Source: an uncultured Methylomarinum sp.
GTDB taxonomy: Bacteria > Pseudomonadota > Gammaproteobacteria > Methylococcales > Methylomonadaceae
Assembly: GCA_964399475.1 (NCBI GenBank)
Contig: CAYNRB010000001.1
Location: forward strand, 1-53,998
Reading direction: 5' to 3'
DNA: 53,998 nt
Positions within the stretch are counted from its first letter, which is position 1, and every line of letters starts with the position of its first letter. Made by a program: the position numbers and the translations under genes. The notes beneath the pieces were generated by a model. It was not told the DNA's origin. It searched no databases and saw only the letters and a list, made by a program, of their open reading frames with translations. Positions 7,266 to 53,811 of the stretch are shown one piece after another.

Positions 7266-7302
7266 GACAATCACTCCATATTTTTTAGTTTACCAAACAT
7301 GA

Positions 7303-26259: not shown

Positions 26260-26674
26260 TTGTTTTCCTTATAAAACATGTTTCTTTTCAAAGCGTATTA
26301 ATATATCGAATAAACTATAAATCAATCAACATACGCTAAAAAGTCATAATTAAAGCGATGAATAAAATAAGGTATAATAACGCGAATTTAACATATAATC
26401 AGACATTTTGGAATGGTATATTAGCTTGTTATATTAATAATAGTAGAAAAAAAACAACAATAGTTAAGCCTTATAAGATTGTTATTGCTTAGGACAAGTC
26501 TGTAGCAAGATTTTTTCCATTGCTTCACCTCTAGAAAGCTAAACGCCTAAACCAAATTATAAACGTGCAGAACACAATCTCGCCAATTGGCTTGGCATAA
26601 AACATTTAGAATCGCTAAAGCTATTCTAATTATGCACGCCCTATATGCACTCCAATACTTTTAAAGATTCAAGA

Positions 26675-27532: not shown

Positions 27533-27548
27533 CCAACCTTCATTTATT

Positions 27549-28913: not shown

Positions 28914-28929
28914 CCTATCAGGAGATATA

Positions 28930-38086: not shown

Positions 38087-41000
38087 TTACTTTACTTTAT
38101 TACTAGTAAACCAGGGAGTACCATCTTTTTTCAAATACATTTTATGCATTTCTTGTTGAGTAAAAGGTCTGGATCCAATTCTACCAAAAACTGCAATTTG
38201 ACCGCCTGTTTCATCTACTGCTCGATCTCTATCTAAACCTTTAGACAAGGCTAATGCAATATTTGAAGTTGGATACGAAGCTATTAGTTCAGGCTTAGGT
38301 TCTGGGCTAAAGCCATAAAACTTAGGCTGACTATCCGGTGATGTTAGTTGCAATACTTTCAATCCATTTTTACCATCAGCAACATAACCAATCAAAGAAG
38401 CATTAGTAGAAGCGACAATAACATCTCTTGCATCATTGAGTTGACCATTAGCTGTAAACAACTGTAGCAGCTTAGGACTTTCTGGTTTTTCAACATTTAT
38501 GATAGCTAAACCCTGCGAGCCTGCTGCCACATAAGCATAGGTTCTAGCAACATAAATTCGATTCGCATCCGTTAAAGCAACCGAGACACCACTGATTAAT
38601 TTTGCTTTTTCAGGCGTTGTTACATCAATAACTTTAAAACCATCTGCATCGGTTACAAATAGATATCTAAATTGTAAAGCTGTAGATTTAGCATTATTCA
38701 AGGGTATCACTGCCGCAACTTTTGGCGATAGCGGCGAATCCAAATTGATAATAATCAAACCGACATCCGCTGTAATATAGGCATAATAGCCACCTAGCGT
38801 TATATGTTTAGCTCCTTTTAGAATATTATCCCCATTCCATGTTAATGCACGTGTAAGAAAGTTATTTCTCGCTTTTCCGTCCGACAATGTATTTACATCG
38901 GTCAGAATTAAGCCTTCTTCTGCATCAACAATAAAGGCATAGTTATAGATTGGATGGAAATCCTGTTCCTGATTCGTCTCATTCATCAATTTACTCATCG
39001 CTTCGGCAGAAAGACCATAGTTACTTTCATAGCGGCGTTGTGGATGAATGGGTTGATTGGTAGGTAAAGCCATACAAGTCGCATTTTTAGAACTTATATG
39101 AGTATCATGTCCCAATGGTGAAAATGGCGCCGTTATAATTCGTTGAGAAATACCTTTATTGGCAATACTGGCAACATCATAGACTCTAAATCCACCTGAG
39201 CCTTCGGCAACATATAAATATTCTCCGCGTAGTTGTAAGCAGCTTGCTACATCAGAACTATGACTATGTACTCTTTTTAAGACTTGTTTATTATTTTGAT
39301 GATCCTTATACCAATCAGGGTAAGCATATTTATGTAAATAGCTACCTATCACGGCTTGAGGTTCTTCCCACTCAGTTACTTGAATAGCTGATATACCACT
39401 TTCTGTTCCCACATAGGCATTATATCCAACAAAGTTTACAAAATTGGTACCCTGTAATAACAGTTGAGCCATGATTGCATTATTATCATTTTCTGCAGAT
39501 AAATGACAATCTTCACATTGTTTGGTTTCTGTTTTACGCGTTGTATGTGGAAAATTGGGGGCGAATGCCTGTGCACTAAAACCACTCGATGAAACTGGAG
39601 GTTGCTGGATATAAATCAGTTCCCTGTTTGCATTTCTGGATGAAAGTATCAAGGCTGAAGATGAACGCACAGGAACTATTCTATTGCCCTTAACCTGTCC
39701 ATGACGACCAATTTGAAACATTTGGTCACGAACTACTTGTGGATTATAAGTTGCGTAATTACGCGCTTCTCCACCTTCATAATGAAGTGTGTCTGTTTTC
39801 CAGTTTGCCTGAATAGGTAAATGACAACCGGCACAACTGGTCACCCACGAACTATGACAAGTAAAGCAGGTCATATTTTCATTTTTATGAGCTCTATCTT
39901 CAGGAGCTACATCGGTTCCCCAAGCTAATGTCTCTGAATTTTTCGATACTAATTTTGCTCGAGCTGCTTTGGCATTATAGGTGGTATGAGCAGGATTAAC
40001 GGTATCTTTGACTAGACTCAGCTCCCATTCCTTATCACTAAATAAGGCAGAACGTTGATACAACTTATTGCCACGCCATTCAAATCGTAATTTACCATCC
40101 TGATTCCTTAATGTAGAAAGATCAGTACCACCAATTGCAGCAGCAGGGCCACTGGTTCTTAAATTTGGATAGGCATCAGCTGTACCATGACAATCTATGC
40201 AATCAACTTCTATTGCTGCTGCTACTTCACCATATAAATGACCATTGCCATGCGAATCTTGAGCAAAGTGACAATCTACACAGTGCATCCCTACGTCCAT
40301 GTGAATAGATGACAGATGAACAGCTTTATTGAATTTTTCTGGATCAGTATCACTGACTTCATTACCTGATGCATCTAATAAGGTACCTTTACGATCACGC
40401 TTAAAAACTGCTCTAAAATTCCAGCCATGTCCGTGATAGTCTGCAAATTGAGTGTCTTTAAGCTTAGGATTCAAATCGGAAACATTTTTGACAAATTCAA
40501 GGTCTTTCCATTTACCTCTTGCTGCTGCTTCCTCAGGATTCCTTTCATTGATTTTTCTGACTTCCGCATGACTCAAAATTTGCTCAGGATCTGGGTTTGC
40601 TCCTGCTCTTACTTGATCACTATTCAAATATCTTTGCTTTTCAGGCCACATATGCGGCGCATCCGATTCATAATCCCACATCGTATAACCCATGAAACTA
40701 TTTACAAAAATATTAGGTTGATGCATATGACAAATCATACATTGACTGGTCGGAATTGCTCTGGTGAATTGATGTTTAATAGGATGTCCCGACTCATTTT
40801 TAGAAATAGTCGGATCTATGGTCTGAGTTTTTCCTGAATGTCCAGCTTTGGCATAAGGACCAGAATGTTTTGGATCCCGATCATTTGCATAGACTACGTG
40901 ACAAGACCCACAACCTGATGTTCGATAATCTCCAGGTTGATCATTGGTCCCTAAAAACCATGTAAAAGGATCATTAAGACGAGTTTTGTGTATGTTAAGA

Positions 41001-41878
41001 ACGGGAACTGAAATTCGTCCACCGGTACCAGAACCTCGATTAGATTGCTTAATATCTGGACGACCCGGCTCTTCAAGTCGTTGAATCAAACCTAAGGCAT
41101 TAGGCAACCCAGTCTCAGGAAATAAATTAGTTATATTACGCCCACCTGCTTCAAAGACTCTGAAAACATCACCCTGTGGCATGTTTTCCCATCTTGGCAA
41201 CGGAATTAATGCAGGTACAATCCCTTTAGCGATCATATTTTCATCAGGTTCATGTGGATTAACCAACTTCTTGGGTAATCCTTCGCGCGTATATGATTCG
41301 CCCATAAAATAGCGTTTATATGGAACAATTCCATTATTGTATGCAGCTCCGCCCCACAACATAGCACCGGTAGCCATTAAACTTCTTTCAGATGCTTCAA
41401 TTATCTTCATATGGCATGCACCACATGACTCTCTTACAATCCGATAATCACTAGGATTAACAAAACGAATATATTCTGGTGATTCTCTATTCAAAAGGGT
41501 AAAACTATGCTTTGGATTCGCACTACTGGGATAATTCCACTCATTTGGTAAAGTAGGGATGACATGTGCTTTATTCATTGAAAGCTGGTATTCCAAATCT
41601 TTATCTGCACTGTTTTCCGGCTTAAACTCATCAGCGTTACCACCATGACAATCTACGCAACCCAAAGGCACTGCTTCAGTTTGATGCATAGATTGACTGT
41701 CTGTTTCGATATGACAACTCAAACAACCTCTAGACTTGGCATCAACTGCTTGCGGATCTTGGAATTGAGGTGCAATCAATGTTGAAGAATCTTTATCAAC
41801 ATCAAAAGCAGCATATCCGTTTATTGATACCAATAGGAATGCTATAAAAGAAAATATAATCAGCTTACATTTATTCAT
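38087..41878 (-). CDS. secreted decahaem c-type cytochrome fused to a C-terminal LVIVD-repeat beta-propeller
   Basis: 1263 aa with a signal peptide (IIFSFIAFLLVSINGYAA). Ten CxxCH motifs at aa 52, 74, 152, 323, 380, 533, 560, 671, 682 and 788. Residues ~880-1185 carry at least six LVIVD-like repeats (YLYVAEGSGGFRVYDV, YAFIVDAEEGLILTDV, YAYITADVGLIIINLDSP, YLFVTDADGFKVIDVTTP, YAYVAAGSQGLAIINVEKP, IGYVADGKNGLKVLQLTSP). Confidence 0.85.
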   Translation of the reverse strand: MNKCKLIIFSFIAFLLVSINGYAAFDVDKDSSTLIAPQFQDPQAVDAKSRGCLSCHIETDSQSMHQTEAVPLGCVDCHGGNADEFKPENSADKDLEYQLSMNKAHVIPTLPNEWNYPSSANPKHSFTLLNRESPEYIRFVNPSDYRIVRESCGACHMKIIEASERSLMATGAMLWGGAAYNNGIVPYKRYFMGESYTREGLPKKLVNPHEPDENMIAKGIVPALIPLPRWENMPQGDVFRVFEAGGRNITNLFPETGLPNALGLIQRLEEPGRPDIKQSNRGSGTGGRISVPVLNIHKTRLNDPFTWFLGTNDQPGDYRTSGCGSCHVVYANDRDPKHSGPYAKAGHSGKTQTIDPTISKNESGHPIKHQFTRAIPTSQCMICHMHQPNIFVNSFMGYTMWDYESDAPHMWPEKQRYLNSDQVRAGANPDPEQILSHAEVRKINERNPEEAAARGKWKDLEFVKNVSDLNPKLKDTQFADYHGHGWNFRAVFKRDRKGTLLDASGNEVSDTDPEKFNKAVHLSSIHMDVGMHCVDCHFAQDSHGNGHLYGEVAAAIEVDCIDCHGTADAYPNLRTSGPAAAIGGTDLSTLRNQDGKLRFEWRGNKLYQRSALFSDKEWELSLVKDTVNPAHTTYNAKAARAKLVSKNSETLAWGTDVAPEDRAHKNENMTCFTCHSSWVTSCAGCHLPIQANWKTDTLHYEGGEARNYATYNPQVVRDQMFQIGRHGQVKGNRIVPVRSSSALILSSRNANRELIYIQQPPVSSSGFSAQAFAPNFPHTTRKTETKQCEDCHLSAENDNNAIMAQLLLQGTNFVNFVGYNAYVGTESGISAIQVTEWEEPQAVIGSYLHKYAYPDWYKDHQNNKQVLKRVHSHSSDVASCLQLRGEYLYVAEGSGGFRVYDVASIANKGISQRIITAPFSPLGHDTHISSKNATCMALPTNQPIHPQRRYESNYGLSAEAMSKLMNETNQEQDFHPIYNYAFIVDAEEGLILTDVNTLSDGKARNNFLTRALTWNGDNILKGAKHITLGGYYAYITADVGLIIINLDSPLSPKVAAVIPLNNAKSTALQFRYLFVTDADGFKVIDVTTPEKAKLISGVSVALTDANRIYVARTYAYVAAGSQGLAIINVEKPESPKLLQLFTANGQLNDARDVIVASTNASLIGYVADGKNGLKVLQLTSPDSQPKFYGFSPEPKPELIASYPTSNIALALSKGLDRDRAVDETGGQIAVFGRIGSRPFTQQEMHKMYLKKDGTPWFTSNKVK

Positions 41879-41929: not shown

Positions 41930-43768
41930 TTAGTATGTGAGTATTAAATTACCCAAAACAGAATATAGTGTTTTATTACCATATAAATCTTTTAGGGCAT
42001 CTCCAGGGACTAAAGCCGCACCTGATAGTCGAAAAACAATATTCTGACTAAACTTAGGCCTATATATAGCAGAAACAGATAAGTCCCAGCCTATATCCGA
42101 GCTGATGCTGCCCTGATTCCTGGCAACTTCAAGCACATTTGTCTCATCAAAATAGAGTTTGTTAAAGTTTGTTGAAAGTCGAAATTCGGGTAAAATATCC
42201 ATATCGGTTCCAAGACCTATTAACACTATCCCCGGATTGGTAAAGTTTGACTGACCTTGATCTTTTGAAGATTCTAGTGAATTTAATATGCCATTTCTAC
42301 CAGATAGGGCAACACCTCCACCTCCTATAAAAGGCACGGCTTGCCTGATCCAAAAGCTACTATCAGCTCCAGCAAACTGAGGGTTTTCAACTATCGCATC
42401 ATAACCATTTGACTTGTTATCAAAGGCATCATCATCACCTGACGCATATAATCCAGACAACCTGACCCGTATCCAATCAAAATCCATGGACAGTTCACCG
42501 GCAAAAAAGTAAGCATCTATTTCACTTTCATCTACATTATATAAACCAGTCGTTTCATCTCCAAATAGATAATATCCAGATACAGTCAGATTGACCCGCC
42601 CAAAATGACCATCTCCATTAAAGCCCGCGTAATAGGCATCATAATCTCGGCCGATTTCATTTCCAATTGAAGCAGGTCTGACTAAAAATCCATTATCGTC
42701 GAAGAAACTATTATTTGCTTCTCTATTTCGGTTATAAGCAAAAGTTAGTTGAGACGTAAATCCACGTACCGGAAAATCTTGACGAAAAATATTTCCAAAG
42801 AAAACTTGATCATCTCGCAAGTCTTCAGAAATATCATTTAAACCGCTATTGGTATCTTTTTCGTGTCGCCAGATTGCAGCTAAATTGTATTGCCATAAAT
42901 TGTTATCCCATGTACCAAACAATCGAGCACCTAATTGTATATCCTGGAACAGGAAGCCTCTGAAATCTAAGGAAAAAGGCTGAATACCCACTCTGATACT
43001 ATTAAAATCATACCGATCAGAACTATTGTTTATATGATAATCTACAAATAGTTCTTGTATCGCAATATGACCATCTTCACGATCAGTACCTTCGCGCGGA
43101 TCTATATTCAAAAAACGCCGCTCCTCCACATCTGTGTAGTTATAATTAAACACAGGTGTAATACGAAATTCAAAATCTGGTGGTCTAAAAACTGTGTCAC
43201 CTTTGAAAAACACAAAAGCAACAATTAAATTTTGATTAAATAAGTACTGATCCTGAGAACCAAATACATCTATATCACCAGCGCTTGCAGTGGTTTGATT
43301 ACCATTTGGCGTAGGTATAAGCCTGTATTCACCAATCGTATCTGATATTACTGATACATTAGCAAACCAGTCATCAAAAATAGGTCTGTCACTTTTAATC
43401 AAATTCCGGTTATAGGGATCCAGAAAGCCTTCTTTTATGCCAATTGCATCCGCAATTCTCCAGCGATCAGGAACCGGTATAAATGTTTCAGGATAAAGAC
43501 CTTTTAATGCAGGAATCCGTTGAAGTCCACTTTTTCTGTTTGGGTCGGCAAGTTCAACGACTTCTGCTTCACTAACTGCAGTTGCACCAGGTCTGATACG
43601 CCTTCTTTCTCCACTCCCTTCATTTGAAGCATTCTCAGAAACGATATCTTGTTCAGCCACTACTGCAATTCCAGCATTTACAGTTGGTAAATAACACCAG
43701 CTGCTAGCTAATAATGTCAAGGCGACAGAACCTATAAAAGGTTTTTTATTATTTTCCACTGCATGCAT
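41930..43768 (-). CDS. putative large outer-membrane beta-barrel protein
   Basis: 612 aa. Signal peptide (SVALTLLASSWCYLPTVNA), pervasive alternating aromatic/polar beta-strand patterning, and a C-terminal ...LGNLILTY aromatic terminus typical of BAM substrates. Its start overlaps the upstream gene by 20 nt. Confidence 0.6.
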   Translation of the reverse strand: MHAVENNKKPFIGSVALTLLASSWCYLPTVNAGIAVVAEQDIVSENASNEGSGERRRIRPGATAVSEAEVVELADPNRKSGLQRIPALKGLYPETFIPVPDRWRIADAIGIKEGFLDPYNRNLIKSDRPIFDDWFANVSVISDTIGEYRLIPTPNGNQTTASAGDIDVFGSQDQYLFNQNLIVAFVFFKGDTVFRPPDFEFRITPVFNYNYTDVEERRFLNIDPREGTDREDGHIAIQELFVDYHINNSSDRYDFNSIRVGIQPFSLDFRGFLFQDIQLGARLFGTWDNNLWQYNLAAIWRHEKDTNSGLNDISEDLRDDQVFFGNIFRQDFPVRGFTSQLTFAYNRNREANNSFFDDNGFLVRPASIGNEIGRDYDAYYAGFNGDGHFGRVNLTVSGYYLFGDETTGLYNVDESEIDAYFFAGELSMDFDWIRVRLSGLYASGDDDAFDNKSNGYDAIVENPQFAGADSSFWIRQAVPFIGGGGVALSGRNGILNSLESSKDQGQSNFTNPGIVLIGLGTDMDILPEFRLSTNFNKLYFDETNVLEVARNQGSISSDIGWDLSVSAIYRPKFSQNIVFRLSGAALVPGDALKDLYGNKTLYSVLGNLILTY

Positions 43769-45740
43769 TTTGTTTACCTGAATTTAAAAATGGCTTATAA
43801 GGACATTGAACATAACGTAATCTAACACCAGCGAGTACTAAATTATCTGCGCGAATTTCAGGAGGTGCATTATTTACAGTATTAATTAGCTTACCTGCAT
43901 TATGCACGCCTAAAAAGGAAATCAAATCATCCTGATCAATACCATCACCTGAAACACCCAAGCCACCGATTAAGGTATTACCACGATAGACTGGAACGCT
44001 TCCTGGGAAAATCTGTATTCCATTTCTTAACTCTGGTATGGGCTGACCTACAGTAAAGTTCTGAATTCCCAAAAAGTTAGCAATAAAGTTTAATGTAGCG
44101 GGAGGGGAAGCTGTACAATCTTGTCCGATATCGGGAGCTAAGCCATAAAATGCAGCGACATGAGTCAACATACCATTAATAACCAGATCTAATTGTAATC
44201 CAGTTGAAAAAGGGCTCCATTCTGGAAAAGGCTTGCTAAAAGGGCCATTTTGAGCCCGTTGAAGACCATCAGGGAAAAACGGTCGAGATAAATTTCCACC
44301 GGCTCTATCTGTGAATGCAACTGCACCGGTCAAAACATTAGGATCATTGAATAAAGTAATTGTAGCATCGACATAACTGCTAATGGGAAAGCCAATTGCT
44401 TGACCTGGAAAACTAACATAAACAGCATCAGAAGCTGAATTCAATTTGTCTTGAGCGTCGCTCTTTGAAAAAAACATTGCTGTTCGTGCCTTTTGTAAGG
44501 ACACATCGGTACCAAATATTGGAGCATCTCGAGTTCGAACAACCCCTAGAATATCACCTTGGGTATCCACCAACGAAACTGTAACGCGAGCTTGAGAGTT
44601 AAAGGGTTGACGAATCTGCGCCCTGGCACTATTTGCAACTGCTATTGCACTGCGTAATAAAGCTAAGGATTCATCTCGGCTTATTCCTACACCCGCACGA
44701 ACAGGAAATCTTTCTTGGTTTGCATTATCAACTAGTACGAAAGCATCCAATCCAGCATAATCATTAGATGCCGGCCTTATTCCAGAATTTACCTCACCAA
44801 AAGCAGTACCTGCCAAAACCTGACCATCAAAATAGACAGGAACAGGGATAAGTAAACCTTTACCTGCTATTTGGGATAAATCCGAAAGTACATTAGAAAC
44901 CGTTTGAGTTTTTAAGTTTTTATATCGAATATCAGAATATCGTAGAGACTTACCTTCAACAGTAATACGATCAGCCCGATTTTTTCTGGAAGATTCAAAT
45001 CCTAAGGTTCCAGCAAGTGCAACCCGTTCATCAATAATATTATCCCGATCTCTAATATTAAGATCAGCACCATAAATTAAATCAGTCTCAACGCCAATCC
45101 CCCCAACTAAAGCTCCGTCTTTGTATAATGGAAAGCCACCAGGATCAGCAGAAAGCCCTAATGGAGAACGTTTAGGTCCAACATCTGCACCCGATGAAAA
45201 TCGCGTAACTAAATCTGAACAAGCAAGTGAACTAAATTGCACACCAAACAGTGGCCCTGCTGGTTGATTAAATTCCTGAGGGTTAAAATTCTGCATAATG
45301 ATATGACTTGCAGTACGCGTAGAAAACGCATTGCCTTCTGAAGAAAGATAGGCACCGGTAATTGCTTTGGCAATAGCTGATAGACTAGCTGGAATAACCC
45401 CTTTTATCCCATCCAAACCGGTCATAACGTTTCTTCCACCGTTTATCTCGATTCTTGGAAAAAAAGCATTATTTGGAAAAGGACCATTCATTTGATAAAC
45501 AGCCAATACATTTCCAACTCTATCAGTTACTGAAATTGTAGAGAATACACCCGCTATTTCAGACTCTTGTACAGCCTGAACAATAATCCGTCTAACATCA
45601 CTTTCTGTTAAGAAACTATTCGCTGTTGAGCAAAAGCCTGTACAACCATCCTTCGCAGAAATCTGAGGTGAAAATGATAAACAATTTGCTAGAAACACAA
45701 AACTTGCTATTAATTTTAGATTATATCTTTTCTTTTTCAT
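43749..45740 (-). CDS. secreted protein with two GlcG/HbpS-like (DUF336, haem-binding) domains
   Basis: 663 aa with a signal peptide. Two copies of the GlcG pattern: (1) VRRIIVQAVQES...ISVTDRVGNVLAVYQMNG ... AKAITGAY ... GGFPLYKDGALVGGIGVE; (2) LLRSAIAVANSA...TVSLVDTQGDILGVVRTRDA...SLQKARTAMFF ... FPGSVPVYRGNTLIGGLGVSGDGIDQDD. Confidence 0.6.
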   Translation of the reverse strand: MKKKRYNLKLIASFVFLANCLSFSPQISAKDGCTGFCSTANSFLTESDVRRIIVQAVQESEIAGVFSTISVTDRVGNVLAVYQMNGPFPNNAFFPRIEINGGRNVMTGLDGIKGVIPASLSAIAKAITGAYLSSEGNAFSTRTASHIIMQNFNPQEFNQPAGPLFGVQFSSLACSDLVTRFSSGADVGPKRSPLGLSADPGGFPLYKDGALVGGIGVETDLIYGADLNIRDRDNIIDERVALAGTLGFESSRKNRADRITVEGKSLRYSDIRYKNLKTQTVSNVLSDLSQIAGKGLLIPVPVYFDGQVLAGTAFGEVNSGIRPASNDYAGLDAFVLVDNANQERFPVRAGVGISRDESLALLRSAIAVANSARAQIRQPFNSQARVTVSLVDTQGDILGVVRTRDAPIFGTDVSLQKARTAMFFSKSDAQDKLNSASDAVYVSFPGQAIGFPISSYVDATITLFNDPNVLTGAVAFTDRAGGNLSRPFFPDGLQRAQNGPFSKPFPEWSPFSTGLQLDLVINGMLTHVAAFYGLAPDIGQDCTASPPATLNFIANFLGIQNFTVGQPIPELRNGIQIFPGSVPVYRGNTLIGGLGVSGDGIDQDDLISFLGVHNAGKLINTVNNAPPEIRADNLVLAGVRLRYVQCPYKPFLNSGKQNACSGK

Positions 45741-45829: not shown

Positions 45830-46375
45830 TTATTTTACTAAACCAAGATTCACAATTTTTACCCGTCTGTTTTTTGAGGAACCAGGATGTTTAGGGTCTA
45901 TTAACTCTGTCTCGCCTTTACCAACAACAACCATGCGTTCAACTGCAACACCATAATTATTGGTCAGATAATTACTAACAGAATCTGCACGTTGCTTTGA
46001 TAGATTATCGTTATATCCAGACTCTCCTAAGGCATCAGTATGTCCTTCAATTCTAAATTTATAAGACTGTAGTTGGGAGCCTTTAAGTGCGGTTCCAAGA
46101 GAATCTAGAGTTGTTTTGGTTCGCTCAGTTAAATCCGCAGAATCAAAATCAAATGTCAATGATAAATTTACTGCGACAGGCTTAGGATTAGTCTTTTTAA
46201 CCTGCCCTATACCTCGCGTTTTAATCCCTACACGAGGTACTAAAGCGTTGGTGAATTCTTCTTGAGTAGGAATTGCTGTTCCAAAATCAGTCACGCTTTC
46301 ATCAGCATAAACGAATCCATTGAAGCCAATTATTGACGAAATTGCTATTACTGAAACTGTCATATATATTTTCAT
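45830..46375 (-). CDS. OmpA-family peptidoglycan-associated protein
   Basis: 181 aa with a signal peptide. Motif: FDFDSADL...RIEGHTDALGESGYNDNLSKQRADSVSNYL...GKGETEL...NRRVKI. Confidence 0.8.
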   Translation of the reverse strand: MKIYMTVSVIAISSIIGFNGFVYADESVTDFGTAIPTQEEFTNALVPRVGIKTRGIGQVKKTNPKPVAVNLSLTFDFDSADLTERTKTTLDSLGTALKGSQLQSYKFRIEGHTDALGESGYNDNLSKQRADSVSNYLTNNYGVAVERMVVVGKGETELIDPKHPGSSKNRRVKIVNLGLVK

Positions 46376-46559
46376 TTGTCTATCCTCTCCTGTTTAAATA
46401 AACATTTAAAGTAATTAATACCATATTATTTTAGATTTGCACAATCATTTTTTAATAAAATGCATTAATTTTTAAATGATTTCGATTAAATCTTAGTATG
46501 ATTCCAACTAAAATTATAAGTAATTAATCTTTACAACTGATTTAATTTAATCACGCAAC

Positions 46560-46606
46560 TTAATTAAACATATTTTAATTATTTTAATTATTTTAATTAA
46601 ACATAC
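46560..46606. repeat. direct repeat TTAATTAAACATA (x2) flanking three tandem ATTTTAATT units
   Basis: Read directly at 46560-46572 and 46594-46606, with the 9-mers between them. Lies inside the 785-bp AT-rich divergent spacer. Confidence 0.7.
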
Positions 46607-47160
46607 TTTAATTATTTAATTAAGTCGTATATATCTTGGTGTTATTATTTAACTTAAGATGCTGTAAAATATATATATTTTATTTTTACCATTAAATATT
46701 CTATACTATATAGATCGTCAGATTTACTTTCAATTGAGTAGAATCAAGTACTCTTGTCCAAAAAGCGATATTATAAAACTCTATTAATATAATTGATTTC
46801 AAATATTTCCCCTTTTGACTTATTTAAAAAGCCGCATTGTCTACAGTAAAATTATTTATTAATGATTTTTAGTAAAAAATTTTTAGTTTCCAAATTTGAT
46901 AATGTTGAACTATGTCCTTGTACATAAGAAAATCTTTAATATATTAGTAATTAATAATATTGTATTGTTATAAAATTATTAAATCTAATAATTAATTCGC
47001 CTGGTAATTATTTTAGATTAATTTCATTAATAACTTGGCTTTATTTGAAAATAAATATATATTTAGACCATACATCTACCAGACTATACATAGTTACTTG
47101 TATTTGAATTTATGTTTATTCAATACATTTTGCTACTAAACCAGTTATTAGGGGAATAAA

Positions 47161-48504
47161 ATGGCTTCAACAGTTAATTTGATTAAAGGCTGCATCTTTT
47201 TTTCATTTTTGTTTTTTCAAATAGCTATTTCTGAAGCAGCCAGTACAGCTATTCCCCAATTCGCAGACAACATCCATTTAGGTGTTGCAACATGTGCAGG
47301 GAGCGCATGTCATGGCTCTTCAGAACCCTTTGACACCTCCACCGTATTACAAAATGAATATCTCACTTGGCAACGCCACGACAAACACTCCAAAGCCTAT
47401 AAAGTTCTTTTCAATGATAGATCTAAAAGAATTGCTCGCAATTTAGGCCTAAAAGCAGCTCATACCGCGAAAATTTGCCTGGATTGCCATACTGATAATG
47501 TAGCTAAAGATAAACGTGGGCGCCGTTTTCAATTATCTGACGGTATTGGTTGTGAAGCTTGTCACGGTGGCGCTGAAAAATATTTAGGCCCACATGTCTC
47601 TGGATTAGCCACACATCAAGAAAATATCGACAATGGACTCTACCCTACTGAAAATCCAATCCAGAGAGCAAAACTTTGCCTTTCATGCCACTTAGGTACC
47701 AATAGCCAATTTGCAACCCATGACATTATGGGAGCGGGTCATCCACGAATTAACTTTGAATTGGATACCTATACTGCAACATCACCCGCCCACTATAAAG
47801 TCGACAAAGATTACCGAGAGAGAAAAGTAGTCTGGAGCCATGCTAGAACATGGGCTGTTGGTCAAGCAATGGCCGTTCAACAATATCTTAATCTTCTTAC
47901 CTCGCCAAAACGGCTAAAAAACGGCCTATTTCCAGAACTTGCTGTATTTGAATGTTATGCCTGCCATCAATCTATGAATGGTCAACGCTGGCAAAAACGT
48001 GAATCCAGTGACATAGGACCCGGAAATATTCGACTTCAGGAAAGCAATATTCTGATGATGAAACATATTGCTAAAGTTATTGACCCTAGCCTTGCCAGTT
48101 CTTTGCATACCAAAACTTTAAATCTTCATCAAGCCAGCACACAAAGCATCCCAAGCATTGTCAGTGCCGCAAAAGAACTAAAAGTATTGAATAGACAGCT
48201 AATTAATAAAATTGCCAGTACAAGTTTTTCTAGCGCAATTATTAACAAAGTACTTTCCAGCATCATCAATGATGGGATTAAAGGCAATTACTTTGATTAC
48301 GCAAGTGCCGAACAAAGTTTAATGGCAATTGAAGCATTAGCAACAACTTTAGCCAACGCCCGTGCGATTGATTTTTCAAGTTCCAGCCCTTTAGCTAAAA
48401 GCATTGATAAACTCTACGTGCTATTAGTAAATGATGATAATTTTTCTCCAAGCTCATTTGCTAGCGAATTAAAACAAATACAAACTAACCTTTCTATAAA
48501 ATAG
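47161..48504 (+). CDS. periplasmic multihaem (4x CxxCH + 1x CxxxxCH) c-type cytochrome with a non-haem helical C-terminal half
   Basis: 447 aa with a signal peptide (CIFFSFLFFQIAISEA). Motifs CAGSACH, CLDCH, CEACH, CLSCH and CYACH all lie in the first ~270 aa. AGGGG RBS. Confidence 0.8.
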   Translation: MASTVNLIKGCIFFSFLFFQIAISEAASTAIPQFADNIHLGVATCAGSACHGSSEPFDTSTVLQNEYLTWQRHDKHSKAYKVLFNDRSKRIARNLGLKAAHTAKICLDCHTDNVAKDKRGRRFQLSDGIGCEACHGGAEKYLGPHVSGLATHQENIDNGLYPTENPIQRAKLCLSCHLGTNSQFATHDIMGAGHPRINFELDTYTATSPAHYKVDKDYRERKVVWSHARTWAVGQAMAVQQYLNLLTSPKRLKNGLFPELAVFECYACHQSMNGQRWQKRESSDIGPGNIRLQESNILMMKHIAKVIDPSLASSLHTKTLNLHQASTQSIPSIVSAAKELKVLNRQLINKIASTSFSSAIINKVLSSIINDGIKGNYFDYASAEQSLMAIEALATTLANARAIDFSSSSPLAKSIDKLYVLLVNDDNFSPSSFASELKQIQTNLSIK

Positions 48505-48691
48505 GATACAAGCTTTCCTTTTAGCTGCTTGACACATTATTTATAAGGGATTTCCTTCAATTATCACGCATGCATTGTTCTGAATTTGAAATTGATTTTT
48601 GAACTCTAGATTTTATGTATAGGCGCAAGTTTTTCAAGTATGCTATTTCTTCTTTTCAAATAGTGTTTTTTTATTTTTCTGGATACAGATT

Positions 48692-51100
48692 ATGTCAGAT
48701 TCAAAACATTACAATATAGTTATCATTGGTTCTGGCCCCGGCGGAATGAGTGCTGCGGGTCGTGCTCAGGAAGCAGGTTTAAATTATATTTTACTTGAAG
48801 CCACAAGCCACCTATCCTATACCATTCACCTTTATCAAAAAGGTAAACACGTCATGGATGAACCGACTATTTTGCCTTTACGCAGTACCTTCGGGTTTAC
48901 AGCCGAATCTCGAGAGGAAATATTAGGTAAATGGGAAGATAAAATAAAATCCCTCAATGTTAATATTCAGTACGACTCCTATGTCGAAACAATTTCTGGT
49001 GAATCAGGAAATTTCACCATTAATATCAAAGGTGGGGAAGTAATAACTGCCGATAAAATTGTGCTTGGAATCGGGCTTCAAGGTAATCTTCGCAAAATGG
49101 GAGTAGAAGGTGAAGATTTACCTTTTGTACAATATCAACTGGATGACCCTGAAGAATATGAAGATGAAACGATTGTGGTTATTGGAGCGGGTGATGCAGC
49201 CATAGAAAATGCCATTGCTTTAGCAAAACAAAATAACGTTATTATCGTAAACCGAAAGAATGAGTTTGCACGAGCAAAAAAGGGCAATCTTAATGGCATT
49301 ACTAGAGCGATAGAAACCGAAACTTTAGAATGCTACTACAATTCAACCAGTGAATGCGTTAAAGCCCTTGATCAACCAGGTGAAAATGGAGAAAAAGGTG
49401 TTTTAGTTCTCAATACTGATGAGGGAACCACTGAAATACCTATACATCGAATCATTGCTCGCTTAGGTGCAATCCCTCCCAGACGATTTGTTGAAGCTTG
49501 TGGAATTGTTTTTCCTAGTAAGGATCCTGCGGCAGTTCCTGCTATCAGTGAAACCTATGAATCAAATGTTCCTGGCTTGCATATAGTCGGTGCTTTAGGC
49601 GGAAATCCTCTGATTAAAGCAGCCATGAACCAAGGCTATGAGGTCATTGAACACATTCAAGGCAACCCAATCGCACCAGCGGATGAGCCACTCTTAAAAG
49701 ACAAGTTTTCTAACCTTGATGCCAGCTTGTCGGTTAGCCAATTACTTGCCCAACTCTATAGCGCTTTACCATTCCTCCAATCATTAACTAAATTACAATT
49801 TAGAGAATTCATTTTAGACAGTGAGATAAGATTACCTCAACCAGGCGAGACCATATATGCAATCAATGATTTCAGTAACTCCTTCTATTCTATTATCACA
49901 GGTCAAGTCGATTTAATTTCTACCGCTGGAGAACGTGATCAGAAATCTACACTACAAAATGGTGATTTTTTTGGTGAATGGAGCTTAATATCGGGTCGCC
50001 GACGTTCTGATACCGCTATTGCCGGTAATAACTGCTTATTAATCGAAAGCGGTCGTAGAATGATGAAAAAACAAATCAGCTCGGATCCTTCCATAGCCGA
50101 TGCGATCAATAAAGTTTTCATCATGCGTGCAGTACAAACTCATCTTGCGCCTGGTGTTCCTCAAGCATTACTCAAAAAATACTTGAATCGAGCAGATATT
50201 GCTTATTTCAAACCCGGTGATTTCTTGCAGAAAGAAGGGGAATCTTGTAGTACCTTTCATATAATACGCTCTGGATCAGTTACGGTTTCACGCAAAGTAT
50301 CTGGCAAAGAAGTCTTAATTTCGTATATGCCTGTGGGTGAATTTCTGGGAGAAATGGCCATACTCAGTGGCAATGCTTGCATGACAACCGCTACGGCTAC
50401 TGTCGCAACTGAAACCATTAGTCTTGATGCCAGCATTTTTACCGAGATGATGAATGATGTTCCTCAAGTTGCACAACTAATTGAAAGCACTTTACAAGAA
50501 CGCCTTAGGGATTATGTACAACTACAAAATCATCCTGAACGAGGTGCAGCAATCTCATTTATGATGCAACAGGGCTTAGGTGAAGCAACCGATGTTCTGG
50601 TTATTGACGAATCATTATGCGTACAATGCGATAACTGCGAAAAAGCCTGTGCGGAAACCCACAACGGCACTTCTCGATTAGATCGTGAAGCTGGCCCCAC
50701 CTATGCCTCACTCCATATTCCAACATCTTGCCGACATTGTGAACAACCACACTGTATGAAAGATTGCCCTCCTGATGCCATTCATCGAGCAAATAATGGT
50801 GAAGTCTTTATTGACCAAAGTTGTATAGGATGTGGTAATTGCCAGCAGAACTGTCCCTACGGTGTCATACAAATGGCAAAATCCGGAACCAAAACCACCA
50901 ATCTTTTTCAATGGCTAGTACTTGGTAAAGGTTCGGCACCCGGAGAAAAAGCAACCCATTTTGATGCTGATGTTCAAAAGAAAGCGGTTAAATGTGATAT
51001 GTGTAAAGATTTACCCGGCGGACAAGCCTGCGTTAGAGCCTGTCCAACGGGTGCTGCAATTCGCATAAATCCTGAACAACTTATTGAATTAACCATATAA
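48692..51100 (+). CDS. cytoplasmic fusion oxidoreductase: FAD/NAD(P)-binding pyridine-nucleotide-disulfide-type domain + two cyclic-nucleotide-binding domains + four-cluster [4Fe-4S] ferredoxin domain
   Basis: 802 aa with no signal peptide. Rossmann motifs IVIIGSGPGGMSAAGRA and IVVIGAGDAAIENA. cNMP-like blocks FFGEWSLISGRRRSDTAIA and FLGEMAILSGNACMTTATA. Cys groups CVQCDNCEKAC, CRHCEQPHCMKDCP, CIGCGNCQQNCP and CDMC..x7..CVRACP (DmsB/NrfC-like spacing). Confidence 0.8.
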   Translation: MSDSKHYNIVIIGSGPGGMSAAGRAQEAGLNYILLEATSHLSYTIHLYQKGKHVMDEPTILPLRSTFGFTAESREEILGKWEDKIKSLNVNIQYDSYVETISGESGNFTINIKGGEVITADKIVLGIGLQGNLRKMGVEGEDLPFVQYQLDDPEEYEDETIVVIGAGDAAIENAIALAKQNNVIIVNRKNEFARAKKGNLNGITRAIETETLECYYNSTSECVKALDQPGENGEKGVLVLNTDEGTTEIPIHRIIARLGAIPPRRFVEACGIVFPSKDPAAVPAISETYESNVPGLHIVGALGGNPLIKAAMNQGYEVIEHIQGNPIAPADEPLLKDKFSNLDASLSVSQLLAQLYSALPFLQSLTKLQFREFILDSEIRLPQPGETIYAINDFSNSFYSIITGQVDLISTAGERDQKSTLQNGDFFGEWSLISGRRRSDTAIAGNNCLLIESGRRMMKKQISSDPSIADAINKVFIMRAVQTHLAPGVPQALLKKYLNRADIAYFKPGDFLQKEGESCSTFHIIRSGSVTVSRKVSGKEVLISYMPVGEFLGEMAILSGNACMTTATATVATETISLDASIFTEMMNDVPQVAQLIESTLQERLRDYVQLQNHPERGAAISFMMQQGLGEATDVLVIDESLCVQCDNCEKACAETHNGTSRLDREAGPTYASLHIPTSCRHCEQPHCMKDCPPDAIHRANNGEVFIDQSCIGCGNCQQNCPYGVIQMAKSGTKTTNLFQWLVLGKGSAPGEKATHFDADVQKKAVKCDMCKDLPGGQACVRACPTGAAIRINPEQLIELTI

Positions 51101-51120
51101 CAAATAAGGAAAATACTCTT

Positions 51121-52059
51121 ATGCAAGAATCATTTCTGAATTATGAACGTTTCCGTTACTTAAAGCTGGCTGTAGCTGTTTCATTGCTTTCCCTTATTCT
51201 GTATATATTTCATGATCCAGGTGTTGCACCGCCAAATGGAGGCACTTGGTTAGGCTACTTGTTAGGTAGTATTTCGGCGGGAATTATCTTTTTACTGCTT
51301 TGGTTTGGTATCAGAAAACGCCGATATTCCTCAACAGCTGGTACAGTAAAAGGCTGGTTATCTGCACATATATACCTTGGCATCGCATTAATTTTTGTTG
51401 GAACGCTTCATACTGGATTTCAATTTGGCTGGAATGTCCACACGCTAGCCTATACATTAATGATTCTAGTTATTCTAAGTGGATTCTATGGATTATATGT
51501 TTATATCCGTTATCCAACCATGCTTAATACCCATAGAAATGGAATAAATCGCTTGGAAATGCTTAAGGAAATTAATGAACTGGATGAACTGTCACTCTCC
51601 ATTGCCAATAACGAATTAAGTCCAAAAATTCATGAAGTTATCTTGCGTTCTATCGAAAAAACTCGAATAGGTACCTCTGTCTGGCAACAATTGACTGCAA
51701 TGGAATACGGCTCTGACCCCTTTGAAGGTGTTGAAAAAATGTTAGCAGATTATCAACAAGGTGTGCAAAGTGAAACCTTAATGCTGGACAGCAATCAGCA
51801 ATCAGGTAACTCAACTAACTCACAAGCTACCATGATGTATATCAGTAATGCCTTGAATGTGATTGACTCGGATCAGCTTGAATCCGTACGAAGATTACTG
51901 GAAGCCGTGGGAAGAAAAAAATCATTAGTCAAACAAGTTAGACGTGATATCCAGTTAAAAGCAACCATCCAGTTCTGGCTATATATTCATATTCCACTTT
52001 CACTAGCTTTATTTGCTGCATTAATCATCCATATATTTAGCGTTTTCTTTTATTGGTAA
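51121..52059 (+). CDS. integral membrane protein, candidate dihaem b-type transmembrane electron carrier
   Basis: 312 aa with about 5 TM helices and a ~150-aa soluble insert. TM3 reads H83-x13-H97 (HIYLGIALIFVGTLH) and TM5 reads H290-x13-H304 (HIPLSLALFAALIIH). Confidence 0.5.
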   Translation: MQESFLNYERFRYLKLAVAVSLLSLILYIFHDPGVAPPNGGTWLGYLLGSISAGIIFLLLWFGIRKRRYSSTAGTVKGWLSAHIYLGIALIFVGTLHTGFQFGWNVHTLAYTLMILVILSGFYGLYVYIRYPTMLNTHRNGINRLEMLKEINELDELSLSIANNELSPKIHEVILRSIEKTRIGTSVWQQLTAMEYGSDPFEGVEKMLADYQQGVQSETLMLDSNQQSGNSTNSQATMMYISNALNVIDSDQLESVRRLLEAVGRKKSLVKQVRRDIQLKATIQFWLYIHIPLSLALFAALIIHIFSVFFYW

Positions 52060-52065
52060 GCTATC

Positions 52066-53811
52066 ATGAAATGTCTTGTAAATTATATTACTCGCCGTAA
52101 AAACGGTAATATTAGTACTAAATCAAAAGAAGTTGATGCCAACAGCATTGGTATTGGACGTGCTACTGACCAGGAAATTTTCTTATCAGATCTTCGTATT
52201 GCTTATAAACATGCTGAAATAGTTCTGCTTGAAGGAAAATACTACATCAAATCCCTGGCTTTATCTGGCATTAGACTGAACAATGCCATTACTTCATCAG
52301 TTTTGTTGACACCAGGCGTTGTCGTACAAATAGGAAACTACGAACTTAAAGTTATTGAAAAACCGGGTTATGACCTCGTTGTGGAACTTGAACAAGTCAC
52401 CACAAGTGAAGTTCTAAATGACCAAATAAAATTAGAGTCAAAACTGGATTTAAATCAAACAAAATTAAACAAGCGCCTTCTATCCTGGATAGGTTTTGCT
52501 ACGATATTTGTACTGTTTTTTATTCTCCCTTTAAGTTCTTCATTATTTCAACCGATTAAAGACATTAGCTCTAAAATTCCGCTTATACCAACCGATGCGG
52601 CATGGAAATCAGGCTCCATGGCATCTGTACATCATTTTTTCAAAAATGACTGTCGCTCTTGCCATCAAGATGCATTTGTTCAAGTTAAAGATGAAGCCTG
52701 TACTAGTTGCCATAAAGATACCCACATACATGCCAACGATAACTTAATGGTCAATCAAAATTTAAATAATATCGCTTGTCAGGATTGCCATAAGGAACAC
52801 AATGGAACTGACGGGATGATTATGCCTTCATCCAATAATTTCTGTAGTGATTGCCATGCAGATTTAAAAGAAACATTAGCAGATAAAACTAAATTACTAG
52901 ATGCTAGTGATTTTGGCGATGACCATCCTGAGTTTAGAGCCTCTATCCCTTATTCTAAGTTTGGCAAAAAGAGATTTTCTCGTATATCTATGGATAATAC
53001 TGAGAAACTTAAAGAAAAAAATGCGGTGGTTTTTTCTCATAAAGCTCATTTACAACCTTATTTTCCAGCCAGATTTAAAGAATTGACTAAAAATGGTGCT
53101 GAAAAAATGGCATGTATGGACTGCCACGTTCCTGATAGTGGTGGGAAACGCATGATTCCCATCAATTTTGAAGACAACTGTGAGAGCTGTCATAAGCTGG
53201 AAATTGGCAAAAAACAAGCTCGTTTAAAATTACCACATGAGGCAACAACTGAAGTCTATTATTATATAGAACAGTATTATAAGTCACTTGCCCTTGATGG
53301 CGGCATAACCGATACTGAAACCCCAACAGGTTTGAGAACCAGACGACGAGCAGGCCAAGCCATTTCTTCTGAGGAAAGATTAGTTGCATTAAACTGGGCT
53401 TCAAAAAAATCTAAGCAAGTTGCTGAAGAAATTTTTAACTACACGCTTTGTAAAACCTGCCATATAGTAACCAGCTCTGAGAATGCAACACCTCCTTGGA
53501 ACATTTCAGCCGTTTACACACCAGACTTATGGTTTCCAAAAGCAAATTTCACCCATTCCAAACATACAACCATGGAATGCTTAGATTGTCATAATGTAGA
53601 GCAGTCTGAAGTAGGCGAAGATGTTTTGATGCCCAAAATCGCTGATTGCCGAAGTTGTCACGCTGGGGCTCATAATGATGAATTATTGGCTTCTGGATGT
53701 ATTGATTGCCATAGCTTTCATATTGGAAAAGAACTACTTGCTCCTCCTGCACCTACTATTGTAGAACTGAAAGCTACTGGTAATGAAGCTGAAGAAGTAA
53801 TAATAGAATAG
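52066..53811 (+). CDS. FHA domain - single TM - decahaem c-type cytochrome fusion protein
   Basis: 581 aa. N-terminal FHA-like block (IGIGRATDQEIFLSDLRIAYKHAEIVLLEGKYYIKSLALSGIRLNN). TM at aa 138-160 (LSWIGFATIFVLFFILPLSSSLF). Ten CxxCH motifs follow: CRSCH, CTSCH, CQDCH, CSDCH, CMDCH, CESCH, CKTCH, CLDCH, CRSCH, CIDCH. Confidence 0.85.
   Translation: MKCLVNYITRRKNGNISTKSKEVDANSIGIGRATDQEIFLSDLRIAYKHAEIVLLEGKYYIKSLALSGIRLNNAITSSVLLTPGVVVQIGNYELKVIEKPGYDLVVELEQVTTSEVLNDQIKLESKLDLNQTKLNKRLLSWIGFATIFVLFFILPLSSSLFQPIKDISSKIPLIPTDAAWKSGSMASVHHFFKNDCRSCHQDAFVQVKDEACTSCHKDTHIHANDNLMVNQNLNNIACQDCHKEHNGTDGMIMPSSNNFCSDCHADLKETLADKTKLLDASDFGDDHPEFRASIPYSKFGKKRFSRISMDNTEKLKEKNAVVFSHKAHLQPYFPARFKELTKNGAEKMACMDCHVPDSGGKRMIPINFEDNCESCHKLEIGKKQARLKLPHEATTEVYYYIEQYYKSLALDGGITDTETPTGLRTRRRAGQAISSEERLVALNWASKKSKQVAEEIFNYTLCKTCHIVTSSENATPPWNISAVYTPDLWFPKANFTHSKHTTMECLDCHNVEQSEVGEDVLMPKIADCRSCHAGAHNDELLASGCIDCHSFHIGKELLAPPAPTIVELKATGNEAEEVIIE

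Follow-up and report, generated by a model that had tools for sequence, protein, structure and literature searches.

In a 53,998-nucleotide contig of an uncultured Methylomarinum sp. (GenBank assembly GCA_964399475.1, contig CAYNRB010000001.1; hereafter the window), two overlapping genes on the minus strand encode a secreted protein of 663 residues with two HbpS/GlcG/DUF336 modules and an outer-membrane β-barrel protein of 612 residues. A gene for a 1263-residue cytochrome with ten haem motifs lies downstream. The reading that we favour, tentatively and short of conviction, is that the pair serves at the outer membrane as docking site and channel of a system that exports electrons drawn from NAD(P)H. 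More broadly, we infer that the 663-residue, 612-residue and decahaem genes make up the outer-membrane end of a conserved seven-gene envelope pathway for electron export. The features that carry this reading, with models from AlphaFold2 (AF2) and confidence as the predicted local distance difference test (pLDDT), are as follows.

43749..45740, minus strand: gene for the 663-residue tandem HbpS/GlcG/DUF336 protein (PF03928; AF2 model)
44841..45629, minus strand: N-terminal expanded DUF336 module, about residues 38-300 (PF03928, 34 bits)
43806..44723, minus strand: C-terminal expanded DUF336 module, about residues 340-645 (PF03928, 49.5 bits)
43749..43768, minus strand: 20-nt overlap between the stop of the 663-residue open reading frame (ORF) and the ATG of the 612-residue ORF
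41930..43768, minus strand: gene for the 612-residue outer-membrane protein (AF2 model; top Foldseek match AlgE)
43370..43672, minus strand: N-terminal extension of the barrel, predicted periplasmic, residues 33-133 (low pLDDT, many invariant residues)
42230..42442, minus strand: loop of about 70 residues between strands 13 and 14 of the barrel, residues 443-513 (extracellular by topology, highly conserved)
38087..41878, minus strand: gene for the 1263-residue decahaem/LVIVD cytochrome (ten CxxCH; PF08309)
45830..46375, minus strand: gene for an OmpA-like protein of 181 residues (PF00691, E = 2.3e-24), heading the minus-strand unit

The overlapping gene pair and the adjoining cytochrome

On the minus strand, the OmpA-like gene is followed by the 663-residue, 612-residue and 1263-residue ORFs in this order. 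The 663-residue ORF ends with a TAA at 43751-43749 and the 612-residue ORF starts with an ATG at 43768-43766, which confirms the 20-nt overlap described in the original prediction, a model's reading of the letters of this DNA. An alternative in-frame GTG start at 43759 keeps an overlap of 11 nt, and the cytochrome ORF begins 51 nt past the barrel stop. Each protein of the pair has more than 8000 database relatives, at about 55-65% identity, so that both ORFs can be regarded as real rather than as chance frames. In related loci, the barrel start codon lies almost everywhere between about -29 and +12 nt from the upstream stop, with recurrent ATGs at -20, -16 and -4, and overlaps of 16 and 20 nt are found in database gene calls. 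The overlap suggests that the two genes are translationally coupled, as had been proposed. The recurrent tight junction supports this coupling short of proving it, because a nearby start codon is partly expected by chance.

The whole 663-residue protein matched PF03928 (HbpS-like/DUF336) with E = 3.5e-21 and 76 bits, against a cut-off of 25 bits, and the N-terminal half (34 bits) and the C-terminal half (49.5 bits) each passed this cut-off separately, so that the two modules seen earlier stand. When the profiles of the two halves were aligned with hhalign, a probability of 98.4% and an E-value of 5.5e-15 were obtained; both halves share the ending R-A-D-x-(I/L)-T...L-R-Y. A profile search of the PDB with the C-terminal module returned EfgA, 2A2L, the C-terminal domain of PduO (PduOC), NahX and 4NKP. 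The AF2 model, calculated from 71 homologues, has a pLDDT of 88.9 and a predicted template modelling score (pTM) of 0.91. Its significant Foldseek matches in the PDB were all DUF336 proteins, with target TM values of 0.7-0.83: EfgA (6BWS), PduOC:haem (5CX7), 4NKP, 2A2L, HbpS (3FPW) and NahX. The protein is an internal duplication, a fused pseudo-dimer of DUF336 modules that are each split by large insertions.

Signal peptides, assigned by eye, cover residues 1-29 of this protein (cleavage between ISA and K) and residues 1-32 of the barrel (between VNA and G). Six cysteines are conserved in the DUF336 protein (C33xGxC37, C174, C542, C646 and C660), H527 is the sole invariant one of its three histidines, and the mean column identity of the family is 55%. 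Neither this protein nor the barrel contains a CxxCH haem motif. The histidine at chain residue 18 of PduOC, the first residue of the matched stretch and presumably the haem ligand, aligns to an alanine in the C-terminal module. Haem binding is possible, with no positive support from the missing CxxCH, the three histidines and the alanine at the PduOC position.

The best-described relative, HbpS, is an extracellular protein that oxidises Fe(II), binds haem at Thr-113 and iron at D/ExxE motifs, requires the octamer, and acts together with SenS-SenR, a two-component system (PMC3754957). Among the cluster genes of the window and in the three related loci that were read (L001-L003), neither a sensor kinase nor a response regulator of the two-component type was found, domain assignment elsewhere being limited. 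This weakens the idea of redox sensing in the manner of HbpS. Instead, the regulators near the cluster in the window are a Ser/Thr kinase, a PP2C phosphatase and FHA proteins.

In 53 of the 71 DUF336 relatives, a permissive pattern match detected a lipobox (typically L-[AS]-[GA]-C) with a linker rich in Gly and Ser behind it, which indicates that the family was ancestrally a lipoprotein. The window protein and its three closest relatives (74-77% identity, one annotated as Methyloprofundus) have an ordinary AxA signal peptide without the lipobox; by this pattern, their clade would have lost the lipid anchor and become soluble. The small residue after the lipid cysteine suggests that the ancestral lipoprotein was sorted to the outer membrane. 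Some Methylococcales DUF336 proteins are longer, with about 920-940 residues (L002 7252-8145; P0125, P0142 and P0156). In the L002 variant, the extra 300 or so residues form an N-terminal domain of unknown family with a repeated GLWWNP...GRGY motif. The idea that the OmpA-like gene of the window is a split-off piece of such 922-residue variants was rejected, as their extra domain is unrelated to it.

The barrel had been thought to lack a known sequence family, and this proved correct: no Pfam family matched at E ≤ 0.1, a sequence search of the PDB gave nothing at E ≤ 10, and the one porin match was to the Desulfovibrio-type homotrimeric porin NF033939 of NCBIfam, at 26.6 bits far under its cut-off of 250. 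The MtrB_PioB model matched none of the 71 family members at E ≤ 1. Alginate_exp (PF13372) did not match the window barrel and matched 5 of 71 relatives weakly (best E = 0.00095); one database source nevertheless names a homologue 'Alginate export domain-containing protein'.

The AF2 model contains 18 strands over residues 134-612, in agreement with the large outer-membrane barrel that had been recognised from features such as its C-terminus ...GNLILTY. Its pLDDT is 73 overall and mostly above 80 within strands. Long connections follow the odd strands and short turns the even ones, which places the N-terminus and the extension of about 100 residues in the periplasm. The top 17 Foldseek matches were all AlgE (E = 1.8e-17 to 2.4e-15, target TM 0.59-0.67), with 3RBH as the best (E = 1.8e-17). 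The next ones, mostly 18-stranded, were Campylobacter MOMP, chitoporin, OccD/OccK and maltoporin. MtrB was not among the 50 matches listed, which are 16- and 18-strand channels. Judged from the model, the barrel appears to have an AlgE-like fold, but to form a sequence family of its own.

An 18-strand barrel has a backbone diameter of roughly 35 Å, compared with roughly 50 Å for 26 strands; these are estimates from geometry rather than measurements on the model. A folded decahaem domain would not fit into a barrel of about 35 Å, while an extended polymer or a small solute would. The MtrB-like sheath of the original prediction was not borne out: with 18 strands, and with AlgE as the closest solved fold rather than MtrB, a barrel of 26 strands, an MtrAB-type sheath is unlikely.

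The mean column identity of the barrel family is 56%, which is unusually high for an outer-membrane protein. The N-terminal extension carries the motif PDRWR...W(Y/W)DPYN.N.LK.D.P, which is kept in distant members, and its invariant residues are D101, R102, R104, D117-N122, K125, D127 and P129. The loop of residues 443-513 has no predicted secondary structure in the monomer model and is a candidate constriction or partner-binding loop. Since both segments are highly conserved yet unstructured in the model, they are probably buried in the lumen or bound to a partner. Some barrel homologues (P0242, P0244, P0246, P0285, P0288 and P0310) have N-terminal periplasmic extensions of 200-590 residues, in which repeated SPOR-like modules, HEAT-like repeats and low-complexity linkers were seen by eye; this hints at peptidoglycan anchoring. 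No fusion to a DUF336 domain was seen by eye among the long barrel representatives.

The 1263-residue protein contains ten CxxCH motifs, so that the gene downstream of the barrel indeed encodes a decahaem protein, and a C-terminal LVIVD β-propeller (PF08309, E = 9.1e-11). Ten motifs are present in every complete, unfragmented copy across the fetched loci, and the family has a mean column identity of 59%. Searched against the PDB, the single sequence gave no match and the profile a marginal ActA-like one (E = 0.14). The best NCBIfam match was ExtM, far sub-threshold at 63 bits against a cut-off of 800, and weak similarity to MtrC/MtrF domains was detected. The protein did not match the DmsE family; weak DmsE matches (E = 1e-4 to 7e-7, far below the cut-off) fell on two other cytochromes of the cluster, of 447 and 581 residues. 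Its LVIVD and 'choice-of-anchor B' domains are types typical of surface proteins. The propeller part (38087-39240, minus strand; about residues 880-1263) has invariant C880, C935 and M965, and H860, H873, H975 and H1025 are nearly invariant in the LVIVD propeller region. These cysteines and histidines could form a disulfide and/or a metal site, so that the cytochrome could be an enzyme rather than a plain wire.

Conservation of the cluster and its inner-membrane genes

In a scan of one genome per species, at least 564 species carried a relative of the barrel. When 1.84 billion cluster representatives were searched with a profile, 1,888 barrel clusters (at 50% identity) were obtained at E ≤ 1e-3 and 614 at E ≤ 1e-30. 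Gene order was compared in 83 fetched loci, of which 81 were assessable and 61 had the full upstream flank, and the recurrence of each gene was established by tblastn. The original prediction had linked the barrel to its two neighbours, and the three genes indeed travel together: a DUF336 gene is the immediate upstream neighbour of the barrel in 79/83 loci (79/81 assessable) and the decahaem gene follows it in 81/83 (81/81 assessable), both exceptions to the latter being contig ends. Two of the four loci without the DUF336 gene are likewise contig ends. The other two are genuine lacks, L012 (Kiloniellaceae) and L083 (Granulosicoccaceae), where the barrel comes straight after the FHA-decahaem gene with no DUF336 gene between them (L012 9574-9644; L083 1801-1953). 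There, the DUF336 protein is either dispensable in cis or encoded elsewhere in the genome. The locus has the general make-up of a porin-cytochrome cluster, with a barrel gene adjoining secreted multihaem genes and conserved across genomes.

The trio described in the original prediction is sound but incomplete. It had missed the divergent genes at 47161-53811, which belong to the same conserved system and encode an inner-membrane module, as well as the probable lipoprotein ancestry of the DUF336 family. The divergent genes are listed here.

47161..48504, plus strand: secreted pentahaem cytochrome of 447 residues with four CxxCH and one CxxxxCH (in 46/61 full loci)
48692..51100, plus strand: cytoplasmic flavoprotein of 802 residues with FAD/NAD(P), two cyclic nucleotide (cNMP) and 2x[4Fe-4S] domains (in 60/61 full loci)
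51121..52059, plus strand: membrane protein of 312 residues with five hydrophobic helices (His pairs; weak cytochrome b561 match)
52066..53811, plus strand: protein of 581 residues with a cytoplasmic FHA domain, one transmembrane helix (residues 138-156) and a periplasmic decahaem part (ten CxxCH)

The flavoprotein, membrane protein and FHA-decahaem genes are all present in 60 of the 61 full loci. One and the same order is kept in 59 of these loci: flavoprotein, membrane protein, FHA-decahaem, DUF336, barrel, decahaem. The pentahaem gene is found in 46. The window itself is rearranged, in that its inner-membrane genes are divergent from the barrel unit, whereas 59 of the 61 other loci have all genes on one strand. 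The OmpA-like gene is not part of the conserved cluster elsewhere, with any match in only 2 of the 83 loci.

No signal peptide was found on the 802-residue FAD/cNMP/Fe-S protein. In 61 sequences of the 312-residue membrane protein, two pairs of histidines are invariant, H83/H97 and H290/H304, 14 residues apart and one pair per helix. Two such pairs about 14 residues apart on two helices are the bis-haem b pattern of NOX/ferric reductases and cytochrome b561. The invariant pairs suggest that the protein is a di-haem b electron carrier spanning the membrane, although no convincing family match was obtained beyond the weak one to cytochrome b561. H107 is invariant as well in these 61 homologues. 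Together, the three cytochromes of the cluster carry 10 + 5 + 10 haem motifs.

Three probable regulatory genes lie near the cluster in the window.

32970-34679, minus strand: Ser/Thr kinase
34761-35561, plus strand: PP2C phosphatase
35719-36426, minus strand: FHA protein

A PP2C gene and a double-FHA gene come directly after the cluster in at least 17 gammaproteobacterial loci (for example L013 16759-18863 and L083 9109-11196). The kinase, PP2C and FHA neighbours, together with the FHA domain on one of the cytochromes, suggest that phospho-threonine signalling controls the cluster.

Carriers of the barrel are found in two classes. Gammaproteobacterial hosts include Methylococcales, Halieaceae, Steroidobacteraceae, Nevskia, Lysobacterales, Thiotrichales and Alcanivoracaceae, among others, and alphaproteobacterial hosts include Rhodospirillaceae, SAR116, Kiloniellaceae, Nisaea and Oceanibacterium. 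Cultured carriers are Parahaliea, Sediminihaliea, Steroidobacter, Oceanibacterium and Nisaea, all of which we take to be aerobic heterotrophs.

The proposed electron route and its alternatives

In the route that we tentatively favour, cytoplasmic NAD(P)H would reduce the 802-residue FAD/2x[4Fe-4S] protein, which also carries the cNMP-binding domains, and electrons would cross the inner membrane through the four-histidine, presumably di-haem b, 312-residue protein in the manner of NOX and ferric reductases. The FHA-anchored decahaem and the pentahaem would then carry them across the periplasm to the 1263-residue decahaem, held at the outer membrane. The barrel would have two roles, neither of them that of a wide cytochrome sheath: its conserved N-terminal extension in the periplasm would offer a docking platform, and its narrow channel would let a small redox substrate or product pass. 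The 663-residue pseudo-dimer, whose synthesis would be coordinated with that of the barrel, would have had a lipid anchor in the outer membrane ancestrally and be soluble in the clade of the window; its probable task is to bind a small ligand (tetrapyrrole or iron) or to link barrel and cytochrome. Outward electron flow from NAD(P)H would consume membrane potential, which fits a regulated, non-respiratory function and aerobic hosts. Likewise, hosts that are presumably aerobic heterotrophs fit an energy-spending export chain rather than dissimilatory respiration. A cluster of similar domain content, the ptd operon, has independently been read as a putative porin-cytochrome complex (10.1101/2023.11.21.568154).

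Several points weigh against this reading. Complex formation, the direction of electron flow, the location of the cytochrome and the ligand are all inferred, and the physical association of the proteins is read from gene order alone. The surface-type domains of the 1263-residue cytochrome would favour a true extracellular conduit, should they reflect its location. The quality of the barrel model is moderate (pLDDT 73). Ligand binding by the DUF336 modules is putative, and EfgA, a DUF336 member, is presumably a formaldehyde sensor rather than a haem protein. Moreover, the lack of the DUF336 gene in the clusters of L012 and L083 means that it is not strictly required in cis.

The principal alternative, which we consider unlikely, is an extracellular conduit of new design, in which the 1263-residue cytochrome is secreted and bound at the surface on the conserved barrel loop. 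Electrons would cross the outer membrane via a cofactor that the barrel holds inside or beneath itself, such as a haem b on the DUF336 pseudo-dimer or a thin cytochrome segment; the fused cytochrome-porin Cyc2, with its single haem, would be comparable. The strong conservation of the loop of residues 443-513, where surface loops normally vary, and the surface-type LVIVD propeller speak for it, as do the descent of the DUF336 protein from a lipoprotein, for which the surface lipoprotein MtrC offers a parallel, and the ability of the DUF336 fold to bind tetrapyrroles (PduOC:haem, 5CX7; HbpS, PMC3754957). However, neither the barrel nor the DUF336 protein has a haem motif, the 663-residue protein is globular (pTM 0.91) and too big to enter an 18-strand barrel, and the clade of the window has no lipid anchor, which is awkward for a surface-exposed subunit. 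In addition, the histidine of PduOC that we take to be its haem ligand is not conserved. An MtrB-like sheath, in which the decahaem or part of it spans the outer membrane and the DUF336 protein binds haem as its partner in the periplasm or at the surface, appears improbable. A barrel gene followed by a multihaem gene, with near-absolute co-occurrence, is the hallmark of porin-cytochrome systems, the cytochrome is weakly similar to MtrC/MtrF domains and to ExtM, and LVIVD propellers are of a type common on cell surfaces. Nevertheless, the barrel has 18 strands against the 26 of MtrB, its 50 listed Foldseek matches include AlgE and 18-strand solute channels and no MtrB, and none of the 71 members belongs to MtrB_PioB or another Pfam family. 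The adjacent cytochrome is a two-domain protein of 1263 residues rather than an MtrA/DmsE-type rod, and the conserved loop of about 70 residues may fill the lumen.

The DUF336 protein could also stand outside the conduit, as an HbpS-like sensor or protective protein (for haem, iron or redox stress) or as a maturation or assembly factor, a role that we regard as rather improbable. It would accord with the case of HbpS, which works as a sensor partner outside the cell, binds both haem and iron and is able to oxidise Fe(II) (PMC3754957), with the two loci whose clusters have no DUF336 gene, and with the regulation of the system that is visible in its cNMP and FHA domains and in the PP2C and kinase genes nearby. 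Against it, the conserved cluster contains no SenS/SenR-like two-component genes, and HbpS needs to be an octamer to function, whereas in the 663-residue protein two modules with large insertions are fused into a pseudo-dimer. Expression that overlaps with that of the barrel and looks stoichiometric, and a mean column identity of 55%, agree better with a structural subunit than with a sensor. It is very improbable that the pair is a non-redox exporter of polymers or solutes of the AlgK/AlgE kind that merely neighbours cytochromes. AlgE, whose lumen is closed by loops, works with the outer-membrane lipoprotein partner AlgK, and AlgE is the best structural match of the barrel; the database name of one homologue points the same way. 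On the other hand, polysaccharide synthesis genes were absent from the cluster in the window and from the loci L001-L003 that were read, where the neighbours are cytochromes and redox proteins, domains having been assigned in few loci, and the pair has a fixed place between cytochrome genes in 59/61 loci from two proteobacterial classes. Alginate_exp matched only 5/71 members, all at E ≥ 0.00095, and the partner has a DUF336 fold, while AlgK is a TPR protein. Alginate or polysaccharide export was rejected on gene context.

A further reading, which extends the proposed route and which we hold to be quite unlikely, takes the cluster as a regulated bacterial counterpart of NOX/ferric reductases that reaches to the outer membrane and delivers NAD(P)H electrons to the cell surface. 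Its outer end would consist of parts that no known conduit is reported to have: the AlgE-type barrel, the non-cytochrome DUF336 pseudo-dimer holding a tetrapyrrole or iron, and the decahaem with a possibly metal-bearing propeller. Such a system could underlie NADH-stimulated extracellular superoxide production or reductive iron acquisition in aerobic heterotrophs; we know of no enzyme that has been identified behind either process in them. This role is conceivable since the cluster is found in hundreds of species, several of which we take to be aerobic marine, freshwater or soil heterotrophs and methanotrophs.

Related systems and other features of the window

The known outer-membrane conduits (Mtr, Pio/Mto, Geobacter Pcc/Ext and Cyc2) come mostly from metal-respiring or iron-oxidising specialists. 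With MtrCAB, PioAB and MtoAB of Shewanella, Rhodopseudomonas and Sideroxydans, the present cluster shares an outer-membrane barrel gene that adjoins a decahaem gene, a lipoprotein third component and a multihaem chain to bridge the periplasm. It differs in its 18-strand, AlgE-like barrel (MtrB having 26 strands) and in the absence of MtrB_PioB and MtrA/DmsE family membership. Its lipoprotein partner is a DUF336 tandem free of haem motifs instead of a cytochrome, and its apparent input is NAD(P)H via a flavo-Fe-S protein and a four-histidine protein, not the quinol pool via CymA.

Among experimentally examined systems, the closest analogue in architecture is extHIJKLMNOPQS of Geobacter sulfurreducens, which encodes the rhodanese-like ExtH, the porin-like ExtI (45 kDa), multihaem cytochromes and an inner-membrane b-type cytochrome; ExtI was proposed to be a substrate channel and/or cytochrome anchor, not a canonical conduit (PMC5877670). 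In both cases, a non-haem partner and a small porin-like barrel are encoded with multihaem cytochromes. However, the partner is a rhodanese there and a DUF336 protein here, the input is Rieske/cytochrome b there and the FAD/Fe-S and four-histidine proteins here, the taxa differ, and neither the barrels nor the partners showed any relationship in sequence.

The ptdABCDEFG genes of marine Alphaproteobacteria encode a putative porin-cytochrome complex whose function is, according to the authors, completely unknown (10.1101/2023.11.21.568154). The ptd domain set recurs at 47161-53811, a likeness by domain composition only. At this level of domain description, both sets contain an FAD/NAD(P) oxidoreductase, a cNMP/2x[4Fe-4S] protein, a 'ferric reductase-like' membrane protein, a decahaem, a pentahaem (the 447-residue protein resembles PtdA) and a porin. 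In contrast, the FAD and cNMP/Fe-S parts are separate in ptd, with a tetrahaem between them, and fused in the 802-residue protein, and the window has no equivalent of the tetrahaem PtdD. Conversely, neither a DUF336 protein nor a decahaem/LVIVD propeller figures in the description of ptd. From Ferrigenium, the architecture of the 581-residue protein has been reported as novel, there as an FHA-nonahaem alongside a membrane protein and a 4Fe-4S protein (10.64898/2026.01.22.701106); neither a DUF336 tandem nor an LVIVD decahaem is described there. In the full-text literature searched, no paper was found that has the DUF336 tandem, the AlgE-like barrel and the LVIVD decahaem together. The uet cluster of Tenderiales and the MtrAB-type cluster of Methylobacter were set aside as different systems.

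At the level of single proteins, the barrel resembles AlgE of Pseudomonas aeruginosa in its 18 strands (Foldseek E = 1.8e-17, target TM 0.65), but the identity is 12-14%, the Alginate_exp family is not matched by the window barrel, the gene context holds no polysaccharide genes, and the conserved N-terminal extension of about 100 residues and the loop of about 70 residues are additions of the window family. The DUF336 protein shares the PF03928 sequence family and fold, in both halves, with HbpS, PduOC, GlcG and EfgA. Those are domains of about 140 residues that form homo-oligomers, whereas the 663-residue pseudo-dimer is fused and has six conserved cysteines and a probable ancestral lipid anchor. 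As in eukaryotic NOX/FRE proteins, a cytoplasmic FAD/NAD(P)H domain would feed a membrane protein with two histidine pairs, the classic bis-haem b arrangement by which electrons move outward. Here, however, sequence membership is not detectable beyond the weak cytochrome b561 match, the flavoprotein is separate and has added Fe-S and cNMP domains, and 25 c-type haems follow.

The spread over at least 564 species and 1,888 barrel clusters of Alpha- and Gammaproteobacteria, several of them presumably ordinary aerobes, is accompanied by a mean column identity between the two classes of 55-59%, an unusual level for proteins of the envelope. Neither the barrel nor the cytochrome has a curated family name. 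In the outer module, an AlgE-type barrel would take the place of the usual wide sheath, and a duplicated DUF336 protein that of the cytochrome lipoprotein. The input side looks more like an NAD(P)H oxidase than like a quinol dehydrogenase. If the proposed route is correct, many aerobic bacteria own a regulated path that pushes cytoplasmic reducing power to the cell surface, which would bear on iron acquisition, reactive oxygen production, electrode interactions and redox balance, and would give the DUF336 fold a new setting. The hypothesis is directly testable in the cultured hosts Parahaliea, Steroidobacter, Nisaea and Oceanibacterium.

In the AT-rich divergent intergenic region of the window (46376-47160), two copies of the 21-bp near-palindrome TAATTAAACATA(T/C)TTTAATTA are situated at 46561-46581 and 46594-46614, spaced by 12 nt; the pair may be an operator or else plain low-complexity sequence. 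Promoter-like sites in the window did not exceed the shuffled expectation (33 found, 37 expected), and an Rfam search detected no RNA family in it.

Elsewhere in the window, three flagellin genes (4698-7274, 10606-14697 and 3338-4639, all on the minus strand) lie within a flagellar cluster with FliD, FlaG, FliS and MotY. Two of the flagellins are giants of 858 and 1363 residues, in which normal N- and C-terminal flagellin domains surround very large inserts. Further genes (26645-30186, plus strand; 16395-17192, minus strand; 22073-22960, plus strand) encode an MtdB-type methylene-H4MPT dehydrogenase, a glycerate-kinase-like protein and a serine hydroxymethyltransferase, and among them are also a cytochrome c assembly protein and a tyrosine recombinase. 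These genes and the closest homologues, which are found in Methyloprofundus and other Methylococcales, point to a methanotroph with a GC content of about 38%.

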